Shown in pieces: positions 7,298 through 37,263 of a DNA stretch of 42,228 bases (position 1 is its first letter; each line of letters starts with the position of its first letter). Source of the DNA: a virus. Its lineage: Duplodnaviria > Heunggongvirae > Uroviricota > Caudoviricetes. Under the pieces are notes generated by a model. That model made no database searches and was not told the DNA's origin. It worked only from the letters and a program-made list of their open reading frames with translations. A program made the translations under genes and the position numbers. The stretch lies in the IMG/VR virus record IMGVR_UViG_648861009_000010; one strand, given 5' to 3'.

Positions 7298-7312
7298 TTA
7301 CCTTTCAGGTAA
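7298..7312. promoter_or_regulatory. Operator-like palindrome TTACC-TTTCA-GGTAA in the divergent tailspike / SOS-gene intergenic region
   Basis: Perfect 5-bp inverted arms; identical 16-mer ATTACCTTTCAGGTAA also at 26830-26845; half-site TTACC at 7248-7252. Confidence 0.55.
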
Positions 7313-7349
7313 TTTGCAAAACGTGCTGGATAGCAAACAAATTATTTGA

Positions 7350-7369
7350 TACTGTATATTTATACAGTT
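7350..7369. promoter_or_regulatory. LexA (SOS) box
   Basis: taCTGTatatttatACAGtt, a perfect CTGT-N8-ACAG with AT-rich spacer, 20 bp upstream of the ATG at 7389. Confidence 0.75.
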
Positions 7370-7388
7370 ATTGCATGGAGAAGATAAG

Positions 7389-7646
7389 ATGCAGCAGTAT
7401 CACTATCCACTGGAAGACGGATTTACCGAAAGGATTCACACGCCGGGAGGCGTCAGGTCACTGGTGGAGGGATCGCACTTGATGAAATTACTCCGGGATC
7501 TCGATAAGGATGGATTTAATGTCGATGGCCCACTTGCCGAACTGACTGCACTGATTAACTACGTCACCAGCTCACAGATGTCTATGCGGGATCTGCAAAC
7601 ACATCTCGACTATTGTGCCGAACAATTACGAAAACAAACCAGATAA
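7389..7646 (+). CDS. Small SOS-controlled protein, paralog of the C-terminal domain of the downstream BRO-N protein; candidate antirepressor
   Basis: 85 aa from ATG with SD GGAG 8 nt upstream; aligns with the 7947-8672 product C-terminus (LLRDLDKDGFNVDGPLAELT...RDLQTHLDY vs LLNQLQEDGHDVSGAAAELT...RDIQTHAEY). Confidence 0.65.
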   Translation: MQQYHYPLEDGFTERIHTPGGVRSLVEGSHLMKLLRDLDKDGFNVDGPLAELTALINYVTSSQMSMRDLQTHLDYCAEQLRKQTR

Positions 7647-7677
7647 GGTTTGCAATTACCAAATGGAGTGCTTATAT

Positions 7678-7692
7678 TTACCTTTGCGGTAA
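7678..7692. promoter_or_regulatory. Operator-like palindrome TTACC-TTTGC-GGTAA
   Basis: Perfect arms; abuts a TTTACA -35-like hexamer; half-site TTACC at 7655-7659. Confidence 0.5.
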
Positions 7693-7783
7693 ATTTACAT
7701 CGCACTCCTCTTGTGCCATAGTAATCGGGCACTGGCAAAATCCAGTGCCGGGATTGGCGTCCCGGGTTACTAAGTGGCGCATA

Positions 7784-7805
7784 CCACGCCAGACGTGGTT
7801 TTTTT
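7784..7805 (+). terminator. Rho-independent terminator-like hairpin in the 300-bp untranslated spacer
   Basis: ccacg-ccaga-cgtgg followed by 7 T; preceded by two more perfect hairpins (7728-7749, 7748-7765). Confidence 0.5.
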
Positions 7806-7946
7806 ATGCGTTAAGCACAGCTATATCCGAATTATGGTGGGCTGGGCAGGGGTCCGAAAGGACGCCGGTACCACTTAGGCCGGTACGCCAACCTTGTCCA
7901 GTTCACCACCAGTAATTGGCGTTGCGGTGGTGATTAAAATCACTAA

Positions 7947-8672
7947 GTGGAGATAACCACCATGGCTAATGCTCAAACTGCCATCTTCAAATTTGAATCT
8001 GTTAACCCTATCCGTTCCATCATTATCGATGGCCAACCATGGTTTGTAGCCCAAGACGTTTGTAGTGCGCTGCGTATCCAAAACGTCACCCAAGCACTTG
8101 AAAAACTGGATGATGATGAAAGGTCTATGTTCAACATAGGGCATGAACATCGTGCAATTTTTGACAGCCGAGTAAAAGAGATCAACATCATCTCCGAGTC
8201 AGGCCTCTACACACTGATCCTCCGCTGCCGCGACGCAGTGACACCAGGCACTATCCCCTACCGCTTTCGTAAATGGGTTACAGGTGAGGTTCTTCCTCAG
8301 ATCCGCCGCACCGGAAGTTACATTAAAAACTCGCTCCCGCAGGAAGAACGCATAAAGATAGTTGCCGACCAGGTAGCCAACGCCACAGCATCAGCAGTGA
8401 TGCAGGCAATGAAGATAGAGAACAAAACCTACAGTGCCCCACTGAAGCCCGGCTACCGCAGCCTGATTCATTCTCCGTCTGGTGTTCTCGGCCTGACGGA
8501 GAACTCACTGCTGATGAATCTGCTGAACCAGTTACAGGAAGACGGGCACGACGTATCGGGCGCGGCGGCGGAGCTGACCACCATGTTCTGCTACATTGTT
8601 GGTGTGAGCAAATGCCTGCGTGATATCCAGACCCACGCGGAGTACATCAACGACAAGGCTGGGTTCTTCTGA
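7947..8672 (+). CDS. BRO-N domain antirepressor-like protein (Ant-like)
   Basis: N-terminal BRO-N signature (IFKFESVNPIRSIIIDGQPWFVAQDVCSALRI ... SGLYTLILRCRDAVTPGTIPYRFRKWVTGEVLPQIRRTGSY); start may be ATG 7947 or 7962. Confidence 0.7.
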   Translation: MEITTMANAQTAIFKFESVNPIRSIIIDGQPWFVAQDVCSALRIQNVTQALEKLDDDERSMFNIGHEHRAIFDSRVKEINIISESGLYTLILRCRDAVTPGTIPYRFRKWVTGEVLPQIRRTGSYIKNSLPQEERIKIVADQVANATASAVMQAMKIENKTYSAPLKPGYRSLIHSPSGVLGLTENSLLMNLLNQLQEDGHDVSGAAAELTTMFCYIVGVSKCLRDIQTHAEYINDKAGFF

Positions 8673-8744
8673 CGGGCGGCGGCACAGGGATGTGCCTTTA
8701 AATAATTCTGTACAGATTGCAGACTGTGGGTGAATAGCGTACTA

Positions 8745-8759
8745 TTACCTTAAAGGTAA
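8745..8759. promoter_or_regulatory. Operator-like palindrome TTACC-TTAAA-GGTAA overlapping the moron promoter/RBS
   Basis: Perfect arms; directly abuts SD GGAGG of ORF 8772; putative -35 TTGCAG (8717) and -10 TACTAT (8740) upstream. Confidence 0.55.
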
Positions 8760-8771
8760 AGGAGGCGCGAT

Positions 8772-8939
8772 ATGACAGCGTTGAAAAATCGTACTCAGCA
8801 CAATGAACAAGCCAAGCAATGCTGGGATGTCATTGGAAAAGTTATGCTTGGCCGCGCAAGCAAAGAGCGCGACAAGGATATGGTTTACCAGACAGGAACA
8901 TCTTTCAGCGACTTCAAGGCGGCATTTCGCTCCAAATAG
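8772..8939 (+). CDS. Small protein (55 aa), unknown function, first gene of an AT-rich moron
   Basis: ATG with SD AAAGGAGG at 6-nt spacing; not in the ORF track (<60 aa); MTALKNRTQHNEQAKQCWDVIGKVMLGRASKERDKDMVYQTGTSFSDFKAAFRSK. Confidence 0.55.
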   Translation: MTALKNRTQHNEQAKQCWDVIGKVMLGRASKERDKDMVYQTGTSFSDFKAAFRSK

Positions 8940-8959
8940 AAGCACATCAGGAGTTTTCC

Positions 8960-9400
8960 TTGAAGTTTAACATTAGAATATCTAATAGTTTTCTACATGG
9001 GGAAAGCAACACCCCTTTCGCTGTAGACGGACCTTTCCTTACTGATGATGAAATAAAAATCATACAAAGTTTTTTAGAGGATGTTGCCAATGGAAGGGCG
9101 CTTGTTGGAAAAAACAAGCCCTCGTGGGTTGATGATAACCATGATAAAATTCCCGGCTCAGACAATTATGAGCAAGAGAATTATTGGCATTATCATTGTG
9201 GGCCAACATGGTATCCAAACACATTTAAGAATTATACCATTAACTTAAATTTCAACCCTGGCGGAAGGCATTCTAATGAATGCATTCATTATGCAAAAAA
9301 TGATAATGAAATTGTCATTGTTGGATTTTCAAGAGAACACATACCTTTCCTTTCATCAGATGGAAACAACAATCCGCTTTTTAATGATGAAGAAGAATAG
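8960..9400 (+). CDS. Unknown 147-aa protein with His/Cys-containing motifs, second gene of the AT-rich moron
   Basis: Open frame with no internal Met; likely TTG start at 8960 with SD AGGAG 6 nt upstream (the ATG at 8819 overlaps ORF 8772 and lacks an RBS); motifs YWHYHCGP and HSNECIHYAK; all four Arg codons are AGA/AGG; strong terminator follows. Confidence 0.55.
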   Translation: MKFNIRISNSFLHGESNTPFAVDGPFLTDDEIKIIQSFLEDVANGRALVGKNKPSWVDDNHDKIPGSDNYEQENYWHYHCGPTWYPNTFKNYTINLNFNPGGRHSNECIHYAKNDNEIVIVGFSREHIPFLSSDGNNNPLFNDEEE

Positions 9401-9423
9401 CCCGCGCTGCGGGCTTTTTTGTG
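9401..9423 (+). terminator. Rho-independent terminator ending the moron
   Basis: gcccgcg-ctg-cgggc hairpin followed by TTTTTTGTG. Confidence 0.8.
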
Positions 9424-9493
9424 GGCGAAACAAAAGTCAGTGCTACACTCATTGACGCCACATTGAGGTGGCTTATAGATGGAAATTTCACAA

Positions 9494-9654
9494 TGAAAAA
9501 AGCATTTGCTGCACTGTTCGTTTTGTTGTCTCTGGTAGCTTCAACTCAGGCCTTTGCCGGTCGTTGTCAGCACGACAGCGACACTGCTGCTGACGGCTCC
9601 CGCTGCGGTGGGCGTTCTGCGGATTCCCGCCCGGGTGGCGGTGGCATTCGTTAA
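9494..9654 (+). CDS. Possible small secreted peptide (53 aa)
   Basis: Classic signal peptide MKKAFAALFVLLSLVASTQAFA then Gly/Arg/Asp-rich tail; weak RBS; the 3' end overlaps a hairpin that looks like the terminator of the convergent lipoprotein gene. Confidence 0.35.
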
Positions 9655-9677
9655 AAACAAGGCCGCGAAAGCGGCCT

Positions 9678-9689
9678 GTGACATGTCAC
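9678..9689. promoter_or_regulatory. 12-bp perfect palindrome GTGACATGTCAC (copy 1 of 3)
   Basis: Exact 12-mer, also at 27819-27830 and 30084-30095; sits at a convergent gene junction. Confidence 0.45.
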
Positions 9690-9692
9690 GAC

Positions 9693-10106
9693 TTATAAAG
9701 ATGACTGATATTTTACAACTCTGTTCATGGCATCTTTTTTCACCGAGCTGATATCAGTTCTTATTTTGGCTTCGTCATTACTGCTTATCATGCTATTAAT
9801 TTTTTGCACTGACATGCCGTTTCTTTCAGCCATTGCACATACAGCAGCATCGTATGAAGAACTCGCTGCGATGGATATCACCTTGTTACACTCAAACACA
9901 GCACCTTCAGCAATATCAGATGCCGATGAGGCTGGCTTGGTATAAGTCTTGACGTAGTGATCAATACAACTATCCTTCGCCGTCTTGGCAAGAGAAAAAT
10001 CCATTTTAACTTTGTCGCAATATGCCTTATCAACACCGTCATAAACATCATAGGATGTCGAGCAAGCGGATATCAAAAATACCGATAACAGCAATAATTC
10101 CTTCAT
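9693..10106 (-). CDS. AT-rich phage lipoprotein; candidate superinfection-exclusion / lysogenic-conversion moron
   Basis: 137 aa; lipobox LISAC after a hydrophobic signal; SD AGGA 6 nt upstream; terminal gene after the ejection-protein genes; uses AGA for Arg. Confidence 0.6.
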   Translation of the reverse strand: MKELLLLSVFLISACSTSYDVYDGVDKAYCDKVKMDFSLAKTAKDSCIDHYVKTYTKPASSASDIAEGAVFECNKVISIAASSSYDAAVCAMAERNGMSVQKINSMISSNDEAKIRTDISSVKKDAMNRVVKYQSSL

Positions 10107-10115
10107 TGTTGTTCC

Positions 10116-12590: not shown

Positions 12591-12595
12591 TTAAT

Positions 12596-17917: not shown

Positions 17918-20388
17918 CAGAATCCCCCAACAGTAAGGCGAGGAATAACGGCAAGAACAGACAGCGGCAACGGATCAAGCTGACGGATTTTTACACGTCC
18001 GTTTTTGCCCCAGTTACTGTCCAGTTTCACTTCTACTTTTCCGGTAGCATCATCAACAGGATCATCGTAGAACTCGAATTCACGCTGTGGATATTCGTAC
18101 CATTTACCGCCGGGCGTAGTCGCCCAGATGCCGCGACTGGCATTCACAACCAGAGTAACGGAGGGGATCACCTGTTTTTTGTCCAGCAGCGTTTCCTGTC
18201 CGTTAATGTTGATATCCAGTGTTTCGAATTCAGCAGTTATTGGCAGGCCGATGTGCACTACAGCCCCAGGAGATTCCAGCGTGACGGCACCTCCGGAAAC
18301 CACTTTCTGTGGTTCCACGTTCGCATCAGAGAGAATGTTTACGGTCTGGCCTTCAAGATGAGATAGGCCTCCAAATGTCCGGCGCGCCATCTGCCAGTTC
18401 GTGGTGGCCACATTCCTGAGGGATGGCGGGACGTTCCTGTTAGCACGAACCACTACAGCGGTATTGCTGGTTACAGAAATAATGTCGCAACGTAATTCTT
18501 TTGACACCTCATCGCCAGTATCAGGAACAGTTCCGGTATAAGGGAACTGTAGTTGCGCGCCGACATCACTACTGGTGAAGTACGCACCACCAGAAACACT
18601 GATTGTATATTCCGCACGGTAATCCCATTCACCAGAACCACCAGTGATGGTCATCGTTCTGTCAGACGTATTTCTTCCATCATAGCTAAGGCCAGAATCA
18701 ACAAAGAAAGCATCTTCATCGCTGGTAAATAAACGGCTGGACAGCCGCTCGATGTATCTCACTGTTTGCCCGTTAACGGTTCGGTTAACGACGAAATACA
18801 CCGCATCTTCATTGCCTTCGCTGATACTGCATGTGCTTTCATATTTTCCGGTACTGGATTGTGGTGCCCATGCAAAAACCTGCTGATCACGCAAATAGGT
18901 CATCACCAGTAATTTACCGTCATCACGAATGCAGAAGGCGCTGGAGTAAGGGACAATAGAGAAGCACCAGTCAACAATGCTGTGCTTCTGAAAAAGATGA
19001 TTGGCAAGGATGGTCAGGTCGTTCCCCTGATAGCCGTCAACATCGAATGAGTAGGCCAGATCACGGACAACACTGCCTTTCTCCTGGACGAACAGAGCAA
19101 TATTCGCCACGGCAATTGGTGGGACATTGCTCGAGCCATTTGATCCCTGAGAGCTGAATGCAAATGATGATGGGGTTAATACTTTGTTCTGGTCGCCGGT
19201 GATGACGTACTCACCTCCGGAAGTCAGCGCTACCAGCGAACCAACATCAATCAGGTGGCGGATCTCATTAACCTGACGCCCGGCATAGGTGTAGATAATT
19301 CTGTCGTCATCCTGCGTAGGATTGCTTTTGCCAAAATCCTTATAATCCCCGGTACGGCTGGCCCAGATAGTCTGAGGGAACGCAGTCGATGCGGCGAAGT
19401 AAAGACGTTGTTGATAATAAACAACAGTGCCAGGATAACCATTAACACTGTTCCAGGCATATTTAGCCCATTTATAGCTGGCATTATCCTCGCCAACGAC
19501 CTGCGAAGGGATATAGGAAATCACCTCGGCAGTTGCAGTAGTTCCATTTGCAGCAGTGATACGGGCAATGCCAAAACCACTGTGCAGATATTCCCACTCA
19601 ATACCAGTATCATCATCACCGGATCCGCCCCAGCCATCCCATGATGTGCCTTCTGTATGCGAAGGGCGCAAAGTACCTGTTTTGCCTGCTGTAACGGCGC
19701 GATAGTAGTTACTGTCTGCACGGCGAATATCGCCAATCGACGTACTCTTACTGGTTTCCCATACCGGCACTGAATCCACTGCAGGCTGTTCCAGATAGAA
19801 CAATTTGCCTACCTGCTCCGCGCCAAAAATAGAGGCGCTTGCCGTTAACGTAATTGTCCCGGTGCTGGCGCTGGCATAAACCGTCACTGACTCGTCAATA
19901 TTGATATCTTCAAATGGTCCGTTCTTCGTTACCACATCAACCAGTTGCCAGTTGTCATGCGCATAGCGACGCAACTCTTTCGGCGGGTATGCCGGATGAA
20001 CAAGCGTAAGCACGTCTGCGCTTTGCGTGAATTTAATTCGGAACAGATCGGCTTCAGTATATGGCGTGGCAATTTCATAAATAACATTGCTGCTGTTCAG
20101 CACCAACGCACCATCTTTGATAACGCGCATGTACTGGTGTCCGAACTCCAGAGCATAAGTCTGAACCGTCGAGAACTGGAACGGTATCAGGCGGCATTTC
20201 CGATTTGGGTATTTGGCGGCACCGACAAAACGCGTACCAGGTCGATTCTCAACGCCGCCATACTGCCGCACGATAAAGTTATCGCACTTGCGCAATGCCA
20301 CCTGGTACTTCGCCATGTCGATACGACCGTACAACGACGGTCCAATCTCACCACCGGCAAAGCTGGGCTGGATCCAACTGATAGCCAT
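17917..20388 (-). CDS. Tail tubular protein B-like (podovirus nozzle, T7 gp12-like)
   Basis: 823 aa; N-terminus MAISWIQPSFAGGEIGPSLYGRIDMAKYQ resembles the T7 gp12 family N-terminus; follows the tubular A-like gene. Confidence 0.55.
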   Translation of the reverse strand: MAISWIQPSFAGGEIGPSLYGRIDMAKYQVALRKCDNFIVRQYGGVENRPGTRFVGAAKYPNRKCRLIPFQFSTVQTYALEFGHQYMRVIKDGALVLNSSNVIYEIATPYTEADLFRIKFTQSADVLTLVHPAYPPKELRRYAHDNWQLVDVVTKNGPFEDINIDESVTVYASASTGTITLTASASIFGAEQVGKLFYLEQPAVDSVPVWETSKSTSIGDIRRADSNYYRAVTAGKTGTLRPSHTEGTSWDGWGGSGDDDTGIEWEYLHSGFGIARITAANGTTATAEVISYIPSQVVGEDNASYKWAKYAWNSVNGYPGTVVYYQQRLYFAASTAFPQTIWASRTGDYKDFGKSNPTQDDDRIIYTYAGRQVNEIRHLIDVGSLVALTSGGEYVITGDQNKVLTPSSFAFSSQGSNGSSNVPPIAVANIALFVQEKGSVVRDLAYSFDVDGYQGNDLTILANHLFQKHSIVDWCFSIVPYSSAFCIRDDGKLLVMTYLRDQQVFAWAPQSSTGKYESTCSISEGNEDAVYFVVNRTVNGQTVRYIERLSSRLFTSDEDAFFVDSGLSYDGRNTSDRTMTITGGSGEWDYRAEYTISVSGGAYFTSSDVGAQLQFPYTGTVPDTGDEVSKELRCDIISVTSNTAVVVRANRNVPPSLRNVATTNWQMARRTFGGLSHLEGQTVNILSDANVEPQKVVSGGAVTLESPGAVVHIGLPITAEFETLDININGQETLLDKKQVIPSVTLVVNASRGIWATTPGGKWYEYPQREFEFYDDPVDDATGKVEVKLDSNWGKNGRVKIRQLDPLPLSVLAVIPRLTVGGF

Positions 20389-20996
20389 CAGGACAACCTC
20401 GCAATGGTAAACTCGTCAACCGGTGGCTGTGGTTCCTGTGATTCATTCTGGCTATGCGAACCAGCACTAAGAATCACGCGATTGTACATATTGAGAGCAA
20501 ATGTACCGAGATCCGCATTCCCAGTCAGCGCCATGTTAATGGCTGCCGCAAGACGCCAGGCCAGCGCCTCCATAAAAATGGCATCAAACATGTTCACATC
20601 TGAAACGCGAGAGACATACTTGAGCCATGCCTGCGGCTGGTCTGTGTAGATCAACTTTCCTGTTCCGTCGGTGTCTGCACCAACTTCGTACTGAACGCGC
20701 ATTGCTGCTGTTGGATTGCGAACACCGGGAAGCATGATTTCAGTGATGCGCAGGCAATCAGACGGGTACTGATACGCATACGCCCAGTCAGGCGGTGGAT
20801 TGCTCGTATCTGCAAGCGCCACGCGTTTGGTAGCAAAGTTCCAGTCAAAATCAGAAAGCACAGCATCACGACAGGCATCGAAATGCAGGGAACACTCCCC
20901 CGCCTCTTTGCTGGCCTCAGTCAGGCTATTGATGCTGCGACTGTTGCCGATATTCGACAGCGCGCGGTTGCAGATCTCGACAACAGAAGCCATCAC
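20388..20996 (-). CDS. Tail tubular protein A-like (gatekeeper/adaptor, T7 gp11-like)
   Basis: 202 aa; N-terminal pattern ICNRALSNIGNSRSINSL similar to gp11-type adaptors; SD GGGGGTGA upstream; upstream region lost in the gap. Confidence 0.5.
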   Translation of the reverse strand: MMASVVEICNRALSNIGNSRSINSLTEASKEAGECSLHFDACRDAVLSDFDWNFATKRVALADTSNPPPDWAYAYQYPSDCLRITEIMLPGVRNPTAAMRVQYEVGADTDGTGKLIYTDQPQAWLKYVSRVSDVNMFDAIFMEALAWRLAAAINMALTGNADLGTFALNMYNRVILSAGSHSQNESQEPQPPVDEFTIARLS

Positions 20997-24550: not shown

Positions 24551-24843
24551 TCCTGTTCACTGGCCTCTTTGGCCATCTTCAAATACTGTTCAGGGCAATG
24601 CGCCATAACGCGCTGAAACAGTTCCAGCGCCAGATTGCGTTGCCCCTCATTAAATGCCATTGCCATAGCGTCCATCGGTGAGATAGCGGAAAACACACGG
24701 CCTTTCTCCAGCACCGACCAGACAACGCGACGCCCCTGTTCACTGCTCATGACAAAGCGAATGTCATCAATTTCACGCTGCGCCATGTCACGTTGCTTAC
24801 GGGCGTTTTCTTCTTTCAGTTGATCGTCTTCGTAATCTGTCAT
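24547..24843 (-). CDS. Small head-assembly protein, unknown function
   Basis: 98-aa ORF translationally coupled between portal and scaffold. Confidence 0.5.
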   Translation of the reverse strand: MTDYEDDQLKEENARKQRDMAQREIDDIRFVMSSEQGRRVVWSVLEKGRVFSAISPMDAMAMAFNEGQRNLALELFQRVMAHCPEQYLKMAKEASEQE

Positions 24844-26740: not shown

Positions 26741-26830
26741 ATCAATGACTCCGTACGCAATTAAATTATTACCAATTTAACCATATATGATTTATTTATC
26801 GTAGATAGTTGACATTTAACGCGCGAATTA

Positions 26831-26845
26831 TTACCTTTCAGGTAA
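26831..26845. promoter_or_regulatory. Operator-like palindrome TTACC-TTTCA-GGTAA
   Basis: Perfect arms; identical to the 7298 site; between the head operon start and the tRNA region; TTGACA hexamer 18 bp upstream on the + strand. Confidence 0.55.
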
Positions 26846-27167: not shown

Positions 27168-27244
27168 GTGGCATTAGCTCAGTTGGACAGAGCAACCGCC
27201 TTCTAAGCGGTTGGTCGCAGGTTCGAATCCTGCATGCCACGCCA
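27168..27244 (+). tRNA. tRNA-Arg (anticodon UCU), phage-encoded
   Basis: Cloverleaf folded by hand: acceptor GTGGCAT/ATGCCAC, D-stem GCTC/GAGC, anticodon stem ACCGC/GCGGT with loop CTTCTAA, T-arm GCAGG-TTCGAAT-CCTGC, discriminator G, encoded CCA. Confidence 0.85.
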
Positions 27245-27861: not shown

Positions 27862-27904
27862 ATCCTCATCAGAGGATATCAACGACATTATCCCCACCAG
27901 CGGA

Positions 27905-29380
27905 TTAAGCATATGGATCGTAATCTGTGATGGCCTTGCCTTGCTGGTTCTGCTGCCCGGGAATTCGCAGACGCTTCGACACAGGGAACGCAAACGTCAG
28001 CAGTAGCGCATCGCCTTTACCAGGAGAACGCCCAAGCCGCTCCTTGATATCTTCCTTCGGTTCGATAACGATTTTACCGTCCACTCGAACTTTGTACTCT
28101 GCCGCAGACAGGTCGTCCGCTGTTTCCTGGTCATCCAGCATGCCGCCCAGCCTCAGCCATGTCTTACATGAGTTGAACATCTCCCCACGCTTGTTAAGCA
28201 TCTGCGGGTCAGTGGACGCACCGCCGAACGGAACAAGTTGCCATGTACGTCCCCAGCCATCACCGATTGACTTCAAACCGGTTCCGTAACCGAAGTCGAT
28301 GAACACCGCGTCAGCCTGATACTGGTCTTCAAAGTCAGCGATACGCTTCGCCATAATCAGATCGTCGGTTGTCTTGTTGCCAGTCCATAGCACCTTACTG
28401 TGCAACCCCTGCCGCAGGTATATCACAGCGTCATCAACGCCTGAGTATGCCGGGTCAACACCGATTATCACCGGAGCATGCGCCACCTGCGCAGCGGTTA
28501 CCACCCGTTTCATTGCCTCATCAGTAAGACCGGTAGGGATAAACTGCAATTCAGATGCATCAGGGAATATGCCGCGCACACGGATTTTAACGAAGTCGCT
28601 GTCTTCCCCGTAGTCATCAACCCATTTCTGCAACTGCTGTTTGTTAGTGCCTTCCACCGTCCGGCTGTCAATCTGCGCAGTTTTCCAGCGGTGTTTATAT
28701 TTGCGGAAACATTCGCGGAAACGCCCGGTGTTACGTGTAGGGTTTCCGAATGCCACCCAGATAATCTCAGTGTCTTCGTCCGTCAGCGCACCCTCTGCTA
28801 CCTCCCACACCAGATCGGCAATGTTGGATGCTTCGTCGAATACCACGATGATGCGTTTGCGCTCGTTGTGTAGTCCGGCGAATGCCTCAGTGTTGTGCTC
28901 AGACCAGGGGATTGCGTCAGCTCGCCACCGCTTGTCGTGCCCAGGGTCATTGCTGTACATCGCGGTAGCGGTACAGGTAAACCAGTCTTTCGTGATAGCA
29001 AGGTTCGACCACTTGATAATTTCCGGCCAGGTCTTCGTTCGTAGCTGGTTGTCGGTGTTGGCGGTCACCACGACCTTACAATCCTCGCAAGTGGACATGC
29101 CCCAGTTGATCAGCATTGAGATGAATGCGGATTTACCAATACCGTGACCCGAAGCGCGTGCCAGCATAAGCGGCTGATAGCGCGTCTCTGGATTCTGCAG
29201 GTGATCACGTATCTCTCGGAACGCATCAGCCTGCCACTGACGTGGGCCGGTAGCATGTGCCAGTTCAGTCCCCTCTTCCCCCCACGGGAACGCATAGAGG
29301 GCATAGCCAAGCGGATCGTGAGTGAACCCTGCAATATCCTCGATCAACTGCTCTTCAGGAGATAACGCTGTATCTGTCAC
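27905..29380 (-). CDS. terL: Terminase large subunit
   Basis: 491 aa; P-loop-like ASGHGIGKS; acidic nuclease-domain motifs; overlaps TerS by 4 nt. Confidence 0.85.
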   Translation of the reverse strand: MTDTALSPEEQLIEDIAGFTHDPLGYALYAFPWGEEGTELAHATGPRQWQADAFREIRDHLQNPETRYQPLMLARASGHGIGKSAFISMLINWGMSTCEDCKVVVTANTDNQLRTKTWPEIIKWSNLAITKDWFTCTATAMYSNDPGHDKRWRADAIPWSEHNTEAFAGLHNERKRIIVVFDEASNIADLVWEVAEGALTDEDTEIIWVAFGNPTRNTGRFRECFRKYKHRWKTAQIDSRTVEGTNKQQLQKWVDDYGEDSDFVKIRVRGIFPDASELQFIPTGLTDEAMKRVVTAAQVAHAPVIIGVDPAYSGVDDAVIYLRQGLHSKVLWTGNKTTDDLIMAKRIADFEDQYQADAVFIDFGYGTGLKSIGDGWGRTWQLVPFGGASTDPQMLNKRGEMFNSCKTWLRLGGMLDDQETADDLSAAEYKVRVDGKIVIEPKEDIKERLGRSPGKGDALLLTFAFPVSKRLRIPGQQNQQGKAITDYDPYA

Positions 29381-29973
29381 TGATTACCATCCTGACGTTC
29401 TTTGAGTCGCTTCCTGGCTGCCGCTATGCGATCAGCAATTGTCACATTCACATTAACATCCAGGCGTTCTTTGAATGCGTTGACGTCGACGTGCTTACCA
29501 ATCAGTTCGAGGTTCTTCACCTTGTCAGGCCATTTAATTTTTTTGAGGATTGTCTCTATCGAATCCTCGTTCATGTTCATGATGGTCGATGACAGATCAA
29601 AGCCACTAAGCGTAGTGCGCCAGATTTTCGGCCACTCGCGGATTGGCTTAAGGCTCCCATCGTCGTTGAGGATATCAATCACGTCCATCTGGTCGATCTC
29701 CACCAGGCGCATGAGAACGTAATCGGCACTGACGCGCATTCGTTTGTTGCGCTCCTCCATCAACTCGGCAATCCGTTTTTGAATGCGTTCATCGCGCATC
29801 ATGACACTGGCTTTAACTGCCGCTGTATTTGGGGAGAATCCTGCGTTAATCGCTGCCTGAGTCTGGTTTTCAGGCGTTTTGATGTATGACTGGCAATAAG
29901 CCTCCTGCATTGCGGTTAGTGGCTTAAATTGCGTTGATTTGCGTTTATAGGTTTTAGGTTCAGCAGGCATCAT
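29377..29973 (-). CDS. terS: Terminase small subunit
   Basis: Start taken at the internal ATG at 29973 (MMPAEPKTYKRK...) with SD AGGGTGG; the track ORF extends to a TTG at 30051; coupled to TerL. Confidence 0.65.
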   Translation of the reverse strand: MMPAEPKTYKRKSTQFKPLTAMQEAYCQSYIKTPENQTQAAINAGFSPNTAAVKASVMMRDERIQKRIAELMEERNKRMRVSADYVLMRLVEIDQMDVIDILNDDGSLKPIREWPKIWRTTLSGFDLSSTIMNMNEDSIETILKKIKWPDKVKNLELIGKHVDVNAFKERLDVNVNVTIADRIAAARKRLKERQDGNQ

Positions 29974-29990
29974 AACCACCCTGGTAATTG

Positions 29991-30005
29991 TTACCGTTGT
30001 GGTAA
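29991..30005. promoter_or_regulatory. Operator-like palindrome TTACC-GTTGT-GGTAA just upstream of terS
   Basis: Perfect arms, 18 bp upstream of the ATG at 29973; an everted GGTAA-TTG-TTACC overlaps at 29983-29995. Confidence 0.5.
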
Positions 30006-30083
30006 TAGTACCATGCAAAATAAAGCCGCCATAGTTGGCGGCAGTATTCAAAACCCATCAAATTCATCATGCATAATCTACTC

Positions 30084-30095
30084 GTGACATGTCAC
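30084..30095. promoter_or_regulatory. 12-bp perfect palindrome GTGACATGTCAC (copy 3 of 3)
   Basis: Exact 12-mer about 110 bp upstream of the terS start, overlapping the stop of the preceding gene. Confidence 0.45.
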
Positions 30096-30433
30096 ACTAT
30101 TAATTTAGTTTCATGCCAGCCTTTAGTCACCCAGCATTGCGAGTCACCATTACACGGGCATGAATTAACTGGAACTCTCTCGCCGCACTTACCGCAACGT
30201 TTTCTGCTGATCGATTTTATACGCCCGTGCACGCGTGCATCATCCTGGCGGATCAGTAACGCTATATACTCACCAAATTCGTAAGGCGCACGCCCGGGGC
30301 GACGCGTAGCACAGTTACGCTCCAGCATTTCAATTTCCTGAGCATCAAGCACAATTTCCAGCTTACGCACACCAGATGCAGCTTGTCTGGCTCTCTGAGC
30401 GGCTTTGCGCTCTGCTGCTGATTTAGCCATCAA
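30092..30433 (-). CDS. Small basic protein with C-terminal Cys4 zinc-ribbon-like motif
   Basis: 113 aa; CGKCGERVPVNSCPCNGDSQC; last gene before the packaging operon. Confidence 0.5.
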   Translation of the reverse strand: MMAKSAAERKAAQRARQAASGVRKLEIVLDAQEIEMLERNCATRRPGRAPYEFGEYIALLIRQDDARVHGRIKSISRKRCGKCGERVPVNSCPCNGDSQCWVTKGWHETKLIV

Positions 30434-31269: not shown

Positions 31270-31272
31270 GTG

Positions 31273-32976: not shown

Positions 32977-33229
32977 TGGTTGCCTCCGCTTCCCACGTTT
33001 TCAGACTTTCACCACAGAACGGGCAAAATGAAACTCGAATAGGCGATTTAGAAAATTCACCAGACCGCAGCATGATCAGGTCTTGTGAATGAATTAATTC
33101 ATGGTTATAGATTTTGTATTTCAGCAGACCTTTCCGCGTCGTGTATTCAGCGTCATGCTCCAGGGATTGCGTCAACGCCGCGCACGGTTCTATCTTGTTG
33201 CCATTAATTTGGCATTTTGACTCACTCAC
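32969..33229 (-). CDS. Hypothetical small protein with CxxC pairs
   Basis: 86-aa ORF, start overlaps the upstream stop. Confidence 0.45.
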   Translation of the reverse strand: MSESKCQINGNKIEPCAALTQSLEHDAEYTTRKGLLKYKIYNHELIHSQDLIMLRSGEFSKSPIRVSFCPFCGESLKTWEAEATSE

Positions 33230-33660
33230 TGGTTGCCTCCTTTGCGAAGCTGGGCAGCAAAGTCACGGATAGTGTCATCAAGGTCTGGGCACAACAGATG
33301 GTCAGCAAACATCTCTACCCCCTGCGCCCGGACTTCATCCAGGAAAGTGTCGGTGGCTGTGGTTTCGATATCGTTAATTTCAGGAAGAATCTCTTCCCAT
33401 GTAGCGATATCGCCATTCAAATGCCATCCGGCAATTCCACTGGAGTTATCCGCAACACTGCGAACGGCTTCAATAGTTTCGAGCATTACCGCATTCTCCG
33501 CCGCAAGCGCATTAGCACGCACCAGTTGCACTTCCAGTTGCGTTGCCAAATCGCTGATCAGCTTTGCCACACTGCGCATATCAACGGCACCACATTCAGC
33601 TTTCAGTTCCGAAGCCATCTCATGCCCGGCGGCAACTAACCCTTTGATATTACTTTCCAT
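33226..33660 (-). CDS. Hypothetical acidic early protein
   Basis: 144-aa ORF. Confidence 0.45.
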   Translation of the reverse strand: MESNIKGLVAAGHEMASELKAECGAVDMRSVAKLISDLATQLEVQLVRANALAAENAVMLETIEAVRSVADNSSGIAGWHLNGDIATWEEILPEINDIETTATDTFLDEVRAQGVEMFADHLLCPDLDDTIRDFAAQLRKGGNQ

Positions 33661-33721
33661 CTTTACCCTCGTTTATCCACATAACTTATTGATTACATTG
33701 ATAACTAAAAAGATCGTCGAT

Positions 33722-34066
33722 TCAGAACTCTTCGATGTTCCAGCCACCACCTGCTTTCTTTGGCTTAACCGTTACCCCGATGATTCGGAACGGATACTGA
33801 TCTGCGGCGACTTTGGTTTTCACCCTGGCGTCGTCGGTCCAGAAACCTTTCACTTCGTGCAGTTCCATCTCGCCGGTGGCGAGCATCACAGCAAAATCTG
33901 GCGTATAGAACGTGTTGTCAGCTAACCGCAGCTTGATACCCTCGAATCGATACCATGCGATTTCCCCTGCACGTTTACGCAGCTCAAGGTGCTGGCAATA
34001 CGCAGATTCTGTTTTGTTCATCTGGCCTGTTTTGAGCCGACCAAGAGCCTGTATCTGTTTTCTCAT
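33722..34066 (-). CDS. Small conserved phage protein, possibly DUF1064-type putative nuclease
   Basis: 114 aa; pattern AGEI...YTPDF...HEVKGF recalled from DUF1064 proteins; an operator palindrome overlaps its RBS. Confidence 0.4.
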   Translation of the reverse strand: MRKQIQALGRLKTGQMNKTESAYCQHLELRKRAGEIAWYRFEGIKLRLADNTFYTPDFAVMLATGEMELHEVKGFWTDDARVKTKVAADQYPFRIIGVTVKPKKAGGGWNIEEF

Positions 34067-34069
34067 GAT

Positions 34070-34084
34070 TTACCCCTTAGGTAA
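34070..34084. promoter_or_regulatory. Operator-like palindrome TTACC-CCTTA-GGTAA
   Basis: Perfect arms, 4 bp upstream of the ATG at 34066; the spacer contains the SD. Confidence 0.5.
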
Positions 34085-34131
34085 TTAAAAACCACATAAG
34101 ACATTAAATCAATAGACGTTAGAACATTTTA

Positions 34132-34146
34132 TTACCCACTAGGTAA
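34132..34146. promoter_or_regulatory. Operator-like palindrome TTACC-CACTA-GGTAA
   Basis: Perfect arms; 48 bp from the 34070 site. Confidence 0.5.
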
Positions 34147-34183
34147 TTACGTGGGCGTAAAAAAATGCGCTATCGCGCTGGTA

Positions 34184-34984
34184 TTACTTGATAAATCCTG
34201 CCGCCTTTCCCCGCCTGTATTCCTCCATCAGCCACTGCGCCGGTGTTATTCCCCCCAGGGTGGCGGCGTTAGGCATACACCCGAGACTTCGCCCTGGTGG
34301 ATGGTAAACGTCTCTCCCTGTGTCCGGAGGCGTACTCATGGGTTCTGGCTTTGCCTGTATGCTGATCACCGGATCGGGTATCTGCTGTCCGGAAGCCACC
34401 TTTTTCGCCCAATCATCGAGCAGCCTGCGCGCGTGTTTCTCAACCTCAATCTCGCTAAGCTGGCGCTGATACATTGCGCGGCGGGTATCACATACGACCC
34501 AGTACATAACCGGATGTCGCCACGGGAATCTTTCGGGACCACCAGGATATAAACTTTTTTCCTTGCTGTACCGGTGAAACTCCGCCATCACATCGTCAAT
34601 GGTGACGCCAAGAACCATCTTGCTGTCTTTGCACCACTTGATGAATTGCCCAGGCGACGGCCAGAACGGAGATTCACTGGCTCGGGCGTGGCGCATACCA
34701 GCAGAAACCTGTTCACGGGTTCGGATCCCCCCTTCGGCAAACGCAGCAATCCACTGCTGTTTTGCAGCAACTTCCTGCTCTGGCGTCTTCAGGTTGGTTA
34801 CCACTGCCGCCGGAAACAGTTGTTTCAGCTGTTTGAAAAGGGCATCAACAAGCCTCTCTGCTGACATGTTCACCACGTTGTCATTGTTGGTGTACTGATG
34901 CTCATAACCTGACATGCGAGAAAGGGCTTCTCCGTCACGGTTTTGTATCGCGGTAAAAACGTTGTTCACAAGAAATCCTCCCAT
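34184..34984 (-). CDS. Replication protein P-like (lambda P-type DnaB helicase loader)
   Basis: QQWIAAFAEGGIRTREQVSAGMRHARASESPFWPSPGQFIKWCKD closely matches the lambda P segment RQWVLAFRENGITTMEQVNAGMRVARRQNRPFLPSPGQFVAWCRE. Confidence 0.75.
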   Translation of the reverse strand: MGGFLVNNVFTAIQNRDGEALSRMSGYEHQYTNNDNVVNMSAERLVDALFKQLKQLFPAAVVTNLKTPEQEVAAKQQWIAAFAEGGIRTREQVSAGMRHARASESPFWPSPGQFIKWCKDSKMVLGVTIDDVMAEFHRYSKEKSLYPGGPERFPWRHPVMYWVVCDTRRAMYQRQLSEIEVEKHARRLLDDWAKKVASGQQIPDPVISIQAKPEPMSTPPDTGRDVYHPPGRSLGCMPNAATLGGITPAQWLMEEYRRGKAAGFIK

Positions 34985-35781
34985 GCTTCAGGGCTGTTCC
35001 AGTGCGGAACGTTGTTATCAGGTAATGTTGATTGCTTCTGTCTGCTAATCTGCAGTCGCCTTGCCAGCTTCTGCTCCCACTGTGCCTGATGGTATGCCTT
35101 ACCCTCAGCCATCCAGTAAATTCTGAACTCTGCAAGTTCCTGTGCCGTTGGCAGACTGTCCAGGTAGATCCCCTGCAATGAGCTTTTCCGAAGAAAGTCA
35201 TCTGATGGTTGCCATTGTTCATGCATGACAAATTTGCCTAATTGCCCTGGCCCACCAGGAGGAACAAAGTTATTCATCACGGCGTTGTTTGCGCCGGGGT
35301 CATGAGGCACAGAATCCCCGGTTTTTGTCCTGCTCTCCCTCTCTTGGTTAAATGACTGGTTATATGACTGGTTCTGGATCCCGTTTTTGGGATCATTCAA
35401 CATCCCGTTTTTGGGATCATTCAACATCCCGTTTTTGGGTATATTCCCGTTTTCGGTAACATTACCGTTTTCGGGTTCATTACCCCCTTCCCGGTTGCCT
35501 TTAATGTTCCCGTTTTTGGTTATATTAAGAGAGAAAACCCGCACTCTTTTCGTCGCTCCCTTTCTCTCTCCGGTATCTGAAATAAGCCCCATTTTCATGA
35601 GCGATATAAGTCCGGCCTGCACGGTTTTTTTATTCAGGCAAGTGTCTTTAACGAGGCGTTCTATGCTGGGGTAGCAGAGGTTATATTCATCGGCTCTGTC
35701 AGCCATCGAGAGCAGTATGAGCTTTAATGACGAGCTACCTGGATCTGTCTCCCAGGCCCAATCTGTTGCATGTCTGCTCAT
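34966..35781 (-). CDS. Replication initiator (O-like), HTH N-terminus, origin iterons inside the gene
   Basis: 271 aa; internal peptide repeats NGNIPKNGMLNDPKNGMLNDPKNGIQ encoded by DNA iterons; directly upstream of the P-like gene. Confidence 0.6.
   Translation of the reverse strand: MSRHATDWAWETDPGSSSLKLILLSMADRADEYNLCYPSIERLVKDTCLNKKTVQAGLISLMKMGLISDTGERKGATKRVRVFSLNITKNGNIKGNREGGNEPENGNVTENGNIPKNGMLNDPKNGMLNDPKNGIQNQSYNQSFNQERESRTKTGDSVPHDPGANNAVMNNFVPPGGPGQLGKFVMHEQWQPSDDFLRKSSLQGIYLDSLPTAQELAEFRIYWMAEGKAYHQAQWEQKLARRLQISRQKQSTLPDNNVPHWNSPEAWEDFL
35378..35520. repeat. Origin-like iteron array (about 6 copies of cccgttttYgg at 18-24 bp spacing) inside the O-like gene
   Basis: Two perfect 24-bp tandem units atcccgtttttgggatcattcaac, then degenerate copies; adjacent direct repeat atgactggtt x2. 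Confidence 0.7.
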
Positions 35782-35796
35782 GATTAATCTCCGCTA

Positions 35797-35997
35797 TCAG
35801 CTTGAATGCTGTGGGGAGGAATTAATCATGATCTGCTTAATCTCTGCCCTGATACGACGGTTTGATTCCATGGTGCACTCAACACAGTGTCCGTTGTAAA
35901 CCCAGCGTTCACTGTCATGTCCGTGCTTACATGTTTTTCCGGTGTAGTAGCGTTTAAGTCCGCGCTTTGCGGCATCAATACGTGTAATGATTTCCAT
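35797..35997 (-). CDS. Small zinc-finger protein (CII-position regulator candidate)
   Basis: MEIITRIDAAKRGLKRYYTGKTCKHGHDSERWVYNGHCVECT; start uncertain, the track ORF extends upstream through the hexamer repeat. Confidence 0.45.
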   Translation of the reverse strand: MEIITRIDAAKRGLKRYYTGKTCKHGHDSERWVYNGHCVECTMESNRRIRAEIKQIMINSSPQHSS

Positions 35998-36008
35998 GGT
36001 AAGCCCTG

Positions 36009-36035
36009 TTATTGGTATTGGTATTGGTATTGGTA
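36009..36035. repeat. Hexanucleotide microsatellite (TATTGG)x4 plus partial copy
   Basis: tattggtattggtattggtattggtat, 12-40 bp upstream of the zinc-finger gene ATG; on the coding strand CCAATA, in-frame Ile-Pro repeats if the upstream start is used. Confidence 0.8.
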
Positions 36036-36159
36036 TTACGGTCATTTTGTGCTGACACAAAAAAAAGATCAACCACATTTGGTTTTTTATTACCTTTGAG
36101 GTACGAATAGATATGAAAAGACCGCCGGGTGGCGGTCTACAGAGGGTTGTAGCTGGATA

Positions 36160-36390
36160 TCATGAGTAGAAGAAGTATGCCAGTTCTGCTTTTGAGCGCA
36201 ACCATTGTCTTGTTTTACAGGCTTTAAAAAGCCCATTCATCAATACTTTACCTGGCATTTTGCGCTTACCTGTTAAGTGAGTCTGGATATAATGACTCGT
36301 CGTTCCGGCTTCCTGTGCGAAGGCTTCACGCTCATCCGGAGTAAGTGCAAGCCAGTGCTTTTTGAAATCGAAATGTCCGTTATCGCTCAT
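36160..36390 (-). CDS. Cro-like HTH regulator
   Basis: 76 aa; HTH-like segment EAFAQEAGTTSHYIQTHLTGKRK; divergent from the repressor gene across an operator-rich region. Confidence 0.5.
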   Translation of the reverse strand: MSDNGHFDFKKHWLALTPDEREAFAQEAGTTSHYIQTHLTGKRKMPGKVLMNGLFKACKTRQWLRSKAELAYFFYS

Positions 36391-36426
36391 AGCTATTGCC
36401 TGATATTTATTTCAGATAATAAATAT

Positions 36427-36489
36427 TCACCCATAAGGTAACAAAAATCAAGGATAGTTACCTATGGGGTGCATTTACCTGTTGGGTAA
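36427..36489. promoter_or_regulatory. Immunity-region operator cluster (three TTACC-N5-GGTAA-type sites)
   Basis: TCACC-CATAA-GGTAA (36427-36441), TTACC-TATGG-GGTGC (36458-36472), perfect TTACC-TGTTG-GGTAA (36475-36489); an imperfect site TTACC-TTTGA-GGTAC lies at 36090-36104. Confidence 0.6.
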
Positions 36490-36544
36490 TATTGCTTTAA
36501 ATTGAATCATCTACTGATTCATATATGAGGCGATTTTCCAGAAA

Positions 36545-37129
36545 ATGAAAAGTATCCAGGACGTCCGCAGGCAAAATCTCAACGACTTGATCGACCGTGA
36601 ATTCAATGGTGTTCAGACGCGGATGGCTGAAAAACTTGGAACTCAGGCAAATCTGGTAAACCGCTGGGCTCTTGGCAAGAAGGTTATCGGCGACCAGGTT
36701 GCGCGAAAAATTGAAGCTGCCGCCAATAAACCCCGTAACTGGCTTGATATCGATCGCTCGCTTTCTCAGGAAGGTTTTCAGCCTGTCGGCCCTAGCGACA
36801 TTGGTCAGCTGGCGGCTCACAACCTGGAACGCTGGATGAGCGAAAGCCGCGACCTTTCAACGCAGGGAAAACTACACCGCGCATCCGGCGTCGCCCAGGT
36901 GACAATCAGCCGCCTGTTAAACAATGAGGTCAGCGTTTCCATTTCCACCCTGGAGAATGTTGCATCCGCATTCGGGCGTCACGGCTATGAATTACTGATT
37001 CACCCGCACGACCCTGCGACCATCAACTATGATCGCTCGCGCTACGCATTGTTACCCGAAACCGAGAAAGCAAAGATCGAAAGTTACATTGAATTTGTCA
37101 TCAACCAGAACGAAAAAAACAAACAATAA
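36545..37129 (+). CDS. Prophage repressor candidate: two XRE-type HTH-like segments, no LexA-like (S24) cleavage domain
   Basis: 194 aa; HTH-like TRMAEKLGTQANLVNRWALGKKVIGDQVARKIEAA and RASGVAQVTISRLLNNEVSVSISTLENVASAFG; no Ala-Gly / Ser-Lys peptidase motifs; own terminator. Confidence 0.55.
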   Translation: MKSIQDVRRQNLNDLIDREFNGVQTRMAEKLGTQANLVNRWALGKKVIGDQVARKIEAAANKPRNWLDIDRSLSQEGFQPVGPSDIGQLAAHNLERWMSESRDLSTQGKLHRASGVAQVTISRLLNNEVSVSISTLENVASAFGRHGYELLIHPHDPATINYDRSRYALLPETEKAKIESYIEFVINQNEKNKQ

Positions 37130-37150
37130 AATCATACTTTTCAGTAAGTA

Positions 37151-37176
37151 AGCCGCCTTCTGGCGGCTTTTTTATT
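37151..37176 (+). terminator. Rho-independent terminator after the repressor gene
   Basis: agccgcc-ttct-ggcggct hairpin followed by TTTTTATT. Confidence 0.8.
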
Positions 37177-37186
37177 GCCTATACTA

Positions 37187-37201
37187 TTACCTAATGGGTA
37201 A
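37187..37201. promoter_or_regulatory. Operator-like palindrome TTACC-TAATG-GGTAA (pL-like region)
   Basis: Perfect arms, upstream of TTGACA at 37221. Confidence 0.55.
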
Positions 37202-37248
37202 TTTTTTTAACTCATATCTATTGACATCAAACCAAATACGCATAATTA

Positions 37249-37263
37249 TTACCTCAACGGTAA
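37249..37263. promoter_or_regulatory. Operator-like palindrome TTACC-TCAAC-GGTAA overlapping the -10/+1 of the early-left promoter
   Basis: Perfect arms; TTGACA 37221-37226, -10-like ATAATT about 15 bp downstream, ORF start at 37283. Confidence 0.55.

Follow-up and report, generated by a model that had tools for sequence, protein, structure and literature searches.

A dispersed 15-bp palindrome in an epsilon15-type Escherichia coli prophage is probably the operator of the repressor Rep

Introduction

The 42,228-bp stretch of DNA in IMG/VR record IMGVR_UViG_648861009_000010 (hereafter the window, meaning the whole stretch) is a prophage of E. coli that belongs to the genus Uetakevirus (the epsilon15/phiV10 group) and whose orientation is reversed relative to phiV10. 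The 15-bp palindrome TTACC-N5-GGTAA recurs in front of many of its transcription units, and this raises the question of which protein reads the motif and what it does at promoters of such different genes. An earlier sequence-only reading of the window had proposed that a single dimeric DNA-binding protein contacts nearly every transcription unit, and had contrasted this with lambda CI, which acts only at OL and OR. The proposal of one regulator was supported by the positions, conservation and homologies described below, which together point to the palindrome as the operator of the prophage repressor Rep (36545-37129), with a probability of about 85% for this assignment and the lysogen mechanism that we propose with it.

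The arrangement is not new. In the epsilon15 RefSeq record (NC_004775.2), seven protein_bind features described as "repressor / lysogeny", with sequences ATTACC-N5-GGTAAT, already mark the motif at orthologous dispersed positions: before terS, before the gp3 head operon, in the interval that separates the tail fibre gene from gp19, the homologue of ant, at three early-left sites downstream of the repressor gene, and before a nin-type gene. The dispersed operator set is therefore known from epsilon15, at least as a prediction, and the system has been studied structurally in phage SPC32H.

Results

Abundance and conservation of the palindrome

An exact search returned ten perfect copies in the window, at 7298, 7678, 8745, 26831, 29991, 34070, 34132, 36475, 37187 and 37249, the same ten as in the sequence-only reading, compared to a mean of 0.01 and a maximum of 1 in dinucleotide-preserving shuffles. 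With at most one mismatch, the whole window held 13 copies against 0.47 expected, the additions being 36090 (GGTAC), 36427 (TCACC) and 29973 (TAACC). The last of these had been overlooked; among the near-copies proposed earlier, 36090 and 36427 carried one mismatch each and 36458 (TTACCTATGGGGTGC) carried two, and the half-sites at 7248 and 7655 were present. In about 60 kb of host chromosome flanking the near-identical prophage of E. coli MS 198-1, there were no perfect and six one-mismatch copies, so that the pattern count that had been named as a check favored the motif against both shuffled and host DNA. We know of no host transcription-factor site that matches TTACC-N5-GGTAA, and a host factor was set aside as the reader of a motif without a perfect copy in this host DNA. 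Every copy was non-coding, and the search over the window found no site inside operons or genes; the sites at 29973 and 29991 lie within the longest open reading frame (ORF) of terS, upstream of its likely ATG. The copies were found where they had been placed before, that is, in the repressor/cro divergent region (three sites), at the early-left promoter, and ahead of terS, the head operon, the tail fibre gene, the Bro-N antirepressor module and an accessory operon, and at a nin-type promoter.

Eight orthologous positions were occupied by perfect copies across a set of six genomes, which came from E. coli, Salmonella, Enterobacter and Klebsiella, and the layout was likewise present in six further prophages, among them those of Superficieibacter, Erwinia, Citrobacter and Scandinavium; these six and the six aligned genomes make up the 12 genomes in the spacing counts below. 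At the eight orthologous sites, the arms differed from the window copy at 1 of 390 positions, whereas the spacers differed at 70 of 195 (36%) and the 10-bp flanks at 274 of 780 (35%), a contrast that is somewhat inflated because the sites were partly located via the pattern itself. The invariant arms and variable spacer first seen in one sequence thus hold across the six genomes. The extended consensus was A-TTACC-nnWnn-GGTAA-T, and all ten window copies fit ATTACC-N5-GGTAAT with a central A/T; when 57 perfect sites of six genomes were combined in a symmetrised profile, an A flanked the arm in 67% and the central base was A/T in 96%. The A+T content of the spacer followed the type of Rep, being 0.60-0.70 with the phiV10 type (window, phiV10 and Tyrion) and 0.85-0.96 with the epsilon15/BUCT711 type. 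Since the arms are identical while the spacer composition follows the Rep type, the spacer may contribute to immunity specificity.

Could such a pattern arise with no protein involved, by chance or composition, as a short RNA hairpin or through duplicated promoter cassettes? The arms do form a stem of 5-7 bp, and the early-left and nin cassettes share other conserved bases. However, the predicted folds were weak (-3.5 to -5.8 kcal/mol) and had no T tract, the arm mismatches of the imperfect copies were uncompensated, and some sites lie upstream of promoters and would hence be untranscribed. In the scans of the window, no palindrome site coincided with a terminator-like hit or an Rfam match. 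An RNA hairpin or intrinsic terminator was rejected on these folds, missing T tracts and uncompensated mismatches; together with ten copies against 0.01 expected and invariant arms amid spacers and flanks that have diverged by about 35%, they leave a protein-free origin with a negligible chance. The earlier statement that the motif serves a dimeric DNA-binding protein and not an RNA hairpin therefore stands as to the protein operator, while the protein itself is probably, like its homologue SPC32H Rep, no simple dimer but a tetramer (dimer of dimers).

Rep as the probable reader of the motif

Rep was 100% identical to gp40 of phiV10 and about 42-43% identical to the repressors of epsilon15 (gp38) and SPC32H, and its residues 1-190 matched SPC32H Rep (PDB 5D50) over the full length with an E value of 4e-42. 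Pfam returned only helix-turn-helix (HTH) families, namely HTH_3 at residues 106-147 and a weak YdaS at 21-61, and no S24 (LexA-like) self-cleavage domain was found in this search. According to later papers, SPC32H Rep has been crystallised (PDB 5D50 and 5D4Z), its two domain pairs are about 100 Å apart, and its tetramer binds palindromic sites and is dismantled by the small antirepressor Ant; one of these papers states that its repression mechanism "has not been extensively characterized". In phage ZX5, overexpression of the repressor, which is identical in sequence to the window Rep, cut the endolysin and holin transcripts by more than 99.9% (PMC9782041).

The recognition helix of the N-terminal HTH, N36-W41 (NLVNRW), did not vary among five Rep proteins whose overall identity to the window copy is 43-78%, which parallels the invariant operator arms. 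The cI protein of the unrelated Pseudomonas siphophage PseuP_224 (245 aa, longer than Rep and different in the rest of its sequence) has an N-terminal domain 39% identical to that of Rep, and no homologue of the window Cro-like protein was found beside its gene. This phage carries four TTACC-N4-GGTAA sites against 0.14 expected, all of them immediately flanking cI (19922-19974 and 20797-20836), with an identical half-site, a spacer one base shorter and a classical two-cluster layout, whereas the TTACC sites of Uetakeviruses are spread genome-wide. As PseuP_224 shares the half-site and the Rep-type N-terminal domain but no common Cro, the TTACC half-site appears to travel with this domain. Near distant homologues of the domain with different recognition helices (in Paraburkholderia, Hydrogenovibrio and Thiomicrospira), neither the motif nor a clear alternative palindrome was found.

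The Cro-like protein encoded divergently from rep (36160-36390) is the other candidate reader. It would then be the main binder, acting as a lytic-phase repressor or modulator, and Rep would act only at the right operator region (OR) and early-left. Cro proteins commonly share operators with their repressor, this one falls in a "transcriptional repressor" PHROG, and its HTH segment AGTTSHYIQ.HLT was invariant in five genomes, fitting the invariant arms as well as Rep does. However, PseuP_224 has half-sites beside a homologue of the Rep N-terminal domain without this Cro, operators paired at 62 bp are easier to reconcile with a tetramer carrying two DNA-binding pairs than with a protein of 76 aa, and an identical Rep overexpressed alone abolishes lysis-gene transcription in ZX5 (PMC9782041). 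We consider a dominant role of the Cro-like protein unlikely, although the two proteins may share sites, possibly the operators at OR.

Operators in register with promoter-like hexamers

At five promoters, the operator started on the last T of the -10-like hexamer and spanned about -7 to +8. These were early-left (AATTAT, operator from 37249), the promoter of the isrK/C4/Bro-N module (TATATT, 7678), that of the accessory operon (TACTAT, 8745), and, on the minus strand, terS (TGgTACTAT, 30005) and nin (TTTAAT, 34084). At nin, terS and 8745, the Shine-Dalgarno sequence falls in the operator or its neighbor; the nin operator 34070-34084 itself holds that of the DUF1064 gene (start 34066). Of the relatives, only phiV10, Tyrion and BUCT711, which have the module, also had the 7678 site. 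The promoter at 8717 was read by eye and lies below the threshold of the scan; the accessory operon that follows (8772-8939 and about 8960-9400) encodes members of phrog_8607 and phrog_5954, both of unknown function, in an arrangement shared with MS 198-1. This operon had been called a moron, and a site does precede it, but the functional label was not upheld: with its promoter presumably controlled by the repressor, the 8772 gene more probably serves as an accessory gene of the lytic phase than in lysogenic conversion.

Two of the core operators have a partner upstream. The early-left architecture was kept in six genomes, with the operators 62 bp apart here and 61-63 bp apart in 12 genomes, and the nin operators were spaced by 62 bp in 11 of the 12 genomes and by 61 bp in one. 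In both cases, the upstream operator (37187 or 34132) lies just past a terminator, and a conserved TTGAC/TTGAT -35 and the -10 are enclosed between the two operators. An arrangement in which the pairs flank the terminators was rejected, as the terminator lies upstream of the first operator. In straight B-DNA, 62 bp extend over about 210 Å, compared to about 100 Å between the domain pairs of SPC32H Rep, so that a single tetramer on both operators would have to bend the promoter.

The closeness to terminators allows another reading, in which the sites are roadblocks to elongating RNA polymerase (stoperator-like) that back up terminators in the lysogen, keeping read-through of one operon out of the next, while initiation is not repressed. 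Sites lie just past the terminators 37150-37169, 36138-36119 and 30042-30025 and past one before 34146, and dispersed repressor sites have such a role in L5-like mycobacteriophages (compare PMC1934351). Palindromic sites in fixed register on -35/-10-like hexamers would be needless for a roadblock, and no sites were found inside operons or genes. As the main function of the sites, roadblocks are quite improbable, although they could be an additional effect of Rep binding.

The terS region also bears on gene annotation. The operators 29973 and 29991 fall in the longest ORF (29377-30051, minus strand, TTG start), which is terS as annotated in phiV10. In epsilon15, SPC32H and Tyrion, the terS start given in the annotation corresponds by alignment to the ATG at 29970; both operators lie upstream of this ATG and downstream of the terminator hairpin 30042-30025, and the second operator, with one mismatch, covers the Shine-Dalgarno sequence just ahead of it. 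Because the longer ORF would cross the terminator hairpin and both operators, terS probably starts at ATG 29970 (or 29973) and not at TTG 30051. Upstream of this terminator and promoter, a perfect 12-bp palindrome, GTGACATGTCAC (30084-30095), overlaps the stop codon of the 30092-30433 gene; it was present in phiV10, epsilon15 and SPC32H and starts at the cut end of the Tyrion record, and it may be a regulator or packaging site.

The OR cluster

Three operators lie between the divergent rep and cro genes. The cro promoter-like sequence is TTGTTA-17-TATTAT on the minus strand (36444-36416). Relative to the rep start, orthologs of operator 1 were located at about -118 in each of the 12 genomes, those of operator 2 at -85 to -87, perfect or with one mismatch in relatives, and those of operator 3 at -68 to -70, perfect in 12 of 12 genomes. 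At the imperfect operator 36090, beyond the cro gene, the mismatch was conserved in phiV10, Tyrion and MS 198-1. Between this operator and the annotated start of the gp42-like gene are four tandem GGTATT hexamers (36017-36040), which lie in a leader or a possible N-terminal extension.

Late promoters and a second conserved element

The head and tail fibre promoters had no good -35, and each has a lone operator far upstream. At the head promoter, a GGTAA half-site in the 62-bp register overlaps the -10-like TGgTAATAA; the tail fibre promoter also has a GGTAA half-site over its -10, in a 50-bp register. The two share a second box, CATATGTGGTT, at -33 to -20. In relatives, the lysis promoter had a matching layout, with an operator at about -70. 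The tail fibre operator also faces the other way: operator 7298 abuts the TTGCAA -35-like hexamer (7314-7319) of the ant promoter, as 36475 abuts that of rep, and both operators, next to TTGC(T/A)(T/A) hexamers, are centred at about -44.

The second element, C(A/C)WWATRTGGTT, occurred four times in the window against 0.21 expected, for a pattern defined after the copies had been seen. Its sequence corresponds to one half of a 14-bp palindrome, AACCATATATGGTT, a perfect version of which lies at the lysis promoter of phiV10 and Tyrion. At the head and tail fibre promoters and the lysis promoters of relatives, it lies 7 nt upstream of the -10-like hexamer, in place of the -35; it also occurs in the spacer of the nin promoter and after the cro terminator. 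The element was conserved in six genomes and carries no annotation in epsilon15; a middle or late regulator probably binds it. A candidate for this regulator is the last gene before terS (30092-30433), whose N-terminus looked like a ribbon-helix-helix by eye; PHROGs gave its only match, and no Pfam, NCBIfam or PDB sequence match was found.

The presence of late promoters among the targets suggests a further possibility, that the 15-bp palindrome itself is the target of a middle or late phage activator, either this zinc-ribbon regulator or the PerC-like protein 39841-40140. The sites precede late operons, the -70 to -80 position at the head and tail fibre promoters is one that some activators use, and the phage encodes at least two further regulators. 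However, the site covers -7 to +8 at five promoters, which is a repressing position, the motif also forms the three-site rep/cro cluster and brackets the early-left promoter, and an activator of the late promoters would more plausibly bind CATATGTGGTT at -33 to -20. An activator as the reader of the palindrome is thus very improbable, and Rep remains the reader that we favor.

Antirepressors and the proposed route of induction

The small antirepressor gene (7389-7646) encodes the probable inducer, which, by analogy with SPC32H, would dismantle Rep tetramers. The LexA box ahead of it, CTGT-N8-ACA(G/T), was conserved in six genomes. LexA control of ant in SPC32H was reportedly described by Kim and Ryu in 2013. 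Besides this LexA-boxed small Ant, there is a second, P1 immI-like immunity module (7729-8672), in which Rfam detected isrK (67.7 bits) and C4 (66 bits), both above the gathering score, and Pfam detected Bro-N (E 9e-20). As Rep has no S24 domain, induction would proceed without its self-cleavage: inactivation of LexA would free Ant, Rep tetramers would be dismantled and all units would be derepressed together.

Table 1. Coordinates of the operators, promoters and regulatory genes (window positions, unless another genome is named)
Feature	Position	Strand	Remarks
Rep, prophage repressor	36545..37129	+	N-terminal Cro/YdaS-like HTH, middle HTH_3-like dimerisation domain, C-terminal tetramerisation/Ant-binding part
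Cro-like small regulator	36160..36390	-	Divergent from rep; 76 aa; phrog_35 "transcriptional repressor", E 5.6e-13
OR operator 1	36427..36441		TCACCcataaGGTAA, 1 mismatch; overlaps -35 and spacer of leftward cro promoter
OR operator 2	36458..36472		TTACCtatggGGTGC, 2 mismatches
OR operator 3	36475..36489		Perfect; 17 bp from operator 2; directly upstream of TTGCTT -35-like hexamer facing rep
Imperfect operator	36090..36104		TTACCtttgaGGTAC; after cro terminator, before gp42-like gene (35797-35997)
Upstream early-left operator	37187..37201		Perfect; centred at about -62; after rep terminator 37150-37169
Early-left promoter and core operator	37221..37263	+	TTGACA-17-AATTAT at 37221-37249; operator 37249-37263; scan 10/12
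nin-type internal promoter, early-right operon	34070..34146	-	Terminator, operator 34132-34146, TTGATT, TTTAAT, operator 34070-34084
terS promoter region	29973..30013	-	Extended -10 TGgTACTAT 30013-30005; operator 1 30005-29991; operator 2 29987-29973
Promoter and operator of second immunity module	7650..7692	+	TTGCAA-17-TATATT 7650-7678; operator 7678-7692
Weak promoter-like TTGCAG-17-TACTAT and operator 8745-8759	8717..8759	+	Followed by AGGAGG and ATG 8772
Lone head-operon operator (gp3-like/portal)	26831..26845		About 79 bp upstream of inferred start
Lone operator, tail fibre/ant interval	7298..7312		Tail fibre start 7193 (-); about -69 of inferred tail fibre promoter
C(A/C)WWATRTGGTT element	7258-7268, 26779-26789, 34090-34100, 36071-36081	-	phiV10 copy 24736-24749
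Candidate late regulator, last gene before terS	30092-30433	-	113 aa, Cys-rich tail (CGKCG...CPCNGDSQC); phrog_536 "transcriptional regulator"
LexA box	7352..7367		CTGTATATTTATACAG (CTGT-N8-ACAG), ahead of small antirepressor gene
Small antirepressor Ant	7389..7646	+	87% identical over 83 aa to SPC32H Ant, E 5e-56
Second antirepressor module	7729..8672	+	isrK-like RNA 7729-7805, C4 antisense RNA 7830-7913, Bro-N gene 7983-8672
epsilon15 orthologous sites	terS 12-27; head 2931-2947; tail fibre/ant 19895-19911		Annotated as repressor-binding

Genomic setting

The window extends from yfgH/yfgI (1-1071) to the integrase gene (40978-42228), with the insertion adjoining yfgI; the near-identical prophage of MS 198-1 is located between guaA and yfgI. 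Between the prophage end and yfgI lie an STnc490 / IS200 5' element (2146-2269, minus strand) and an IS200-type transposase ORF (1512-1967). An intergenic tRNA gene (27168-27241, plus strand) is located upstream of the head operon, where tRNA-Arg is annotated in relatives. The DnaT-like replication gene (34966-35781, minus strand) contains iteron-like direct repeats at 35345-35530, comprising six copies of an 18-24 bp unit (ATCCCGTTTTTGGGATCATTCAAC, two identical) and two 12-mers, which are probably the replication origin.

Beyond the end of the window at 42228, relatives carry an imperfect copy, TTACC-N5-GGTAT, located 57 bp upstream of the integrase start in phiV10 (26870) and MS 198-1 (10069-10083). 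The same copy, with the mismatch constant, was present in epsilon15, SPC32H, Tyrion, BUCT711 and four further prophages, and in epsilon15 an annotated integrase-binding site overlaps with it. A weak operator of the int promoter is one possible role, and an Int arm site is another.

Discussion

We propose that each pair of Rep N-terminal HTH domains reads the two TTACC arms of an operator. In the lysogen, operators that overlap sigma-70-type promoter cores would be occupied by Rep, probably in tetrameric form with its two DNA-binding pairs. The five core operators (early-left, isrK/C4/Bro-N, the 8772 operon, terS and nin) would block RNA polymerase directly, and at early-left and nin one tetramer would probably hold both operators and thereby bend or loop the promoter. 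The three operators at OR would govern the promoters of both divergent genes, cro and rep. Late genes would in addition be locked directly, by the lone operator that stands at about -70 to -80 of the weak, seemingly activator-dependent promoters of the head and tail fibre genes and, in relatives, of lysis.

It is possible, and we suggest it tentatively, that this fixed geometry is a design rule of the Rep family. Under such a rule, a tetramer would clamp a promoter through the -7 to +8 core operator and an operator 62 bp upstream; at late promoters, the lone operator at -70 to -80 would cooperate with the half-site on the -10 or block an activator at CATATGTGGTT; and from operators at about -44, Rep would, more speculatively, activate its own gene and keep the LexA-locked ant promoter primed. 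The result would be a flat circuit, in which a single repressor acts from repressing as well as activating positions, and not a cascade of the lambda kind.

Several observations weigh against Rep as a repressor at all of these sites. All promoters were assigned by consensus match or by eye, and the number of promoter-like hits in the scan was no higher than in shuffled sequence. An operator abutting the -35 at about -44, as at the ant and rep promoters, could signal activation and not repression, and a lone operator at -70 to -80 is in an unusual position for simple repression. Within the genus, the HTH of the Cro-like protein is as invariant as that of Rep, so that covariation cannot separate the two proteins, and the annotation of repressor sites in epsilon15 is itself a prediction.

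Among known systems, epsilon15 is the closest in arms, spacing, genus, gene order and the dispersed positions at terS, head, tail fibre/ant, early-left and nin. Its genome holds 11 perfect copies compared to the seven annotated, the extras including two at OR and a second nin site. The window differs in the A+T content of its spacers (0.70 here, 0.85 there) and in its Rep, only about 42-43% identical to gp38, and it adds copies at the isrK/C4/Bro-N module and the accessory operon. Its tail fibre and lysis genes are contiguous, which accounts for the absence of a copy at a lysis promoter. The Rep-Ant switch of SPC32H is matched by a full-length homologous Rep, an Ant of 87% identity and a LexA box before ant, whereas the immunity type of Rep differs (42% identity). 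The sequence, the orthologous positions, the cognate Rep and the small Ant with its LexA box that characterize a Uetakevirus Rep operator set were all found here.

The divergent repressor and cro genes, the three-site cluster, the second set at early-left and palindromes read by an HTH protein resemble the CI/Cro system of lambda. Unlike in lambda, operators also lie at 7298, 7678, 8745, 26831, 29973/29991 and 34070/34132, 2 to 29 kb from rep, and Rep lacks the S24 self-cleavage domain of CI and is presumably induced by an antirepressor. In phage P1, one repressor, C1, acts on many genome-spread operators, including that of an antirepressor operon with a C4 RNA (immI, c4-icd-ant), and these operators are asymmetric 17-mers read by monomeric C1, which is unrelated to Rep. 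The window shares with P1 the control of many operons by one repressor and a C4-antirepressor module (C4 RNA at 7830-7913) with a repressor operator, but its site is a perfect palindrome and Rep is an XRE/Cro-type HTH protein. Many repressor sites are dispersed over the genomes of L5/L1-like mycobacteriophages, unlike in lambdoid phages (PMC1934351). The sites of the window are symmetric, intergenic and promoter-associated, whereas stoperators are asymmetric, orientation-dependent, often in transcribed regions and act on elongation. Rco of the Bacillus plasmid pLS20 forms a TetDloop tetramer that loops DNA, and the paper that describes it judges its tetramerisation domain structurally similar to that of SPC32H Rep. 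Rep resembles Rco in its N-terminal DNA-binding and C-terminal tetramerisation domains and in relief by an antirepressor, and the paired operators of the window fit a bridging or looping model; however, the tetramerisation domains have no sequence homology, and looping is only proposed for Rep.

Full-text literature searches on the motif or on Uetakevirus operators, whose scope did not include the primary epsilon15 and SPC32H papers, found nothing specific. The -10 register on the last T, the 62-bp bracket, the far-upstream operators at promoters with a -30 box and the N4-spaced Pseudomonas relatives were not found in the records and papers examined. As the epsilon15 record already carries both the motif and its scattered positions, what the present analysis adds is confirmation and finer anatomy. 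In practical terms, the 15-mer marks promoters and corrects the terS start, and it can serve prophage annotation, the prediction of immunity groups and the engineering of phiV10-type reporter phages.

If Rep occupies all of these sites, early, replication, packaging, head, tail and accessory genes would be under one direct repressor, with an SOS-controlled antirepressor as the switch. Such a circuit would be simpler than the lambda cascade, and it would operate in widespread enterobacterial prophages, including phiV10 of E. coli O157, epsilon15, SPC32H and their Klebsiella, Enterobacter and Citrobacter relatives.

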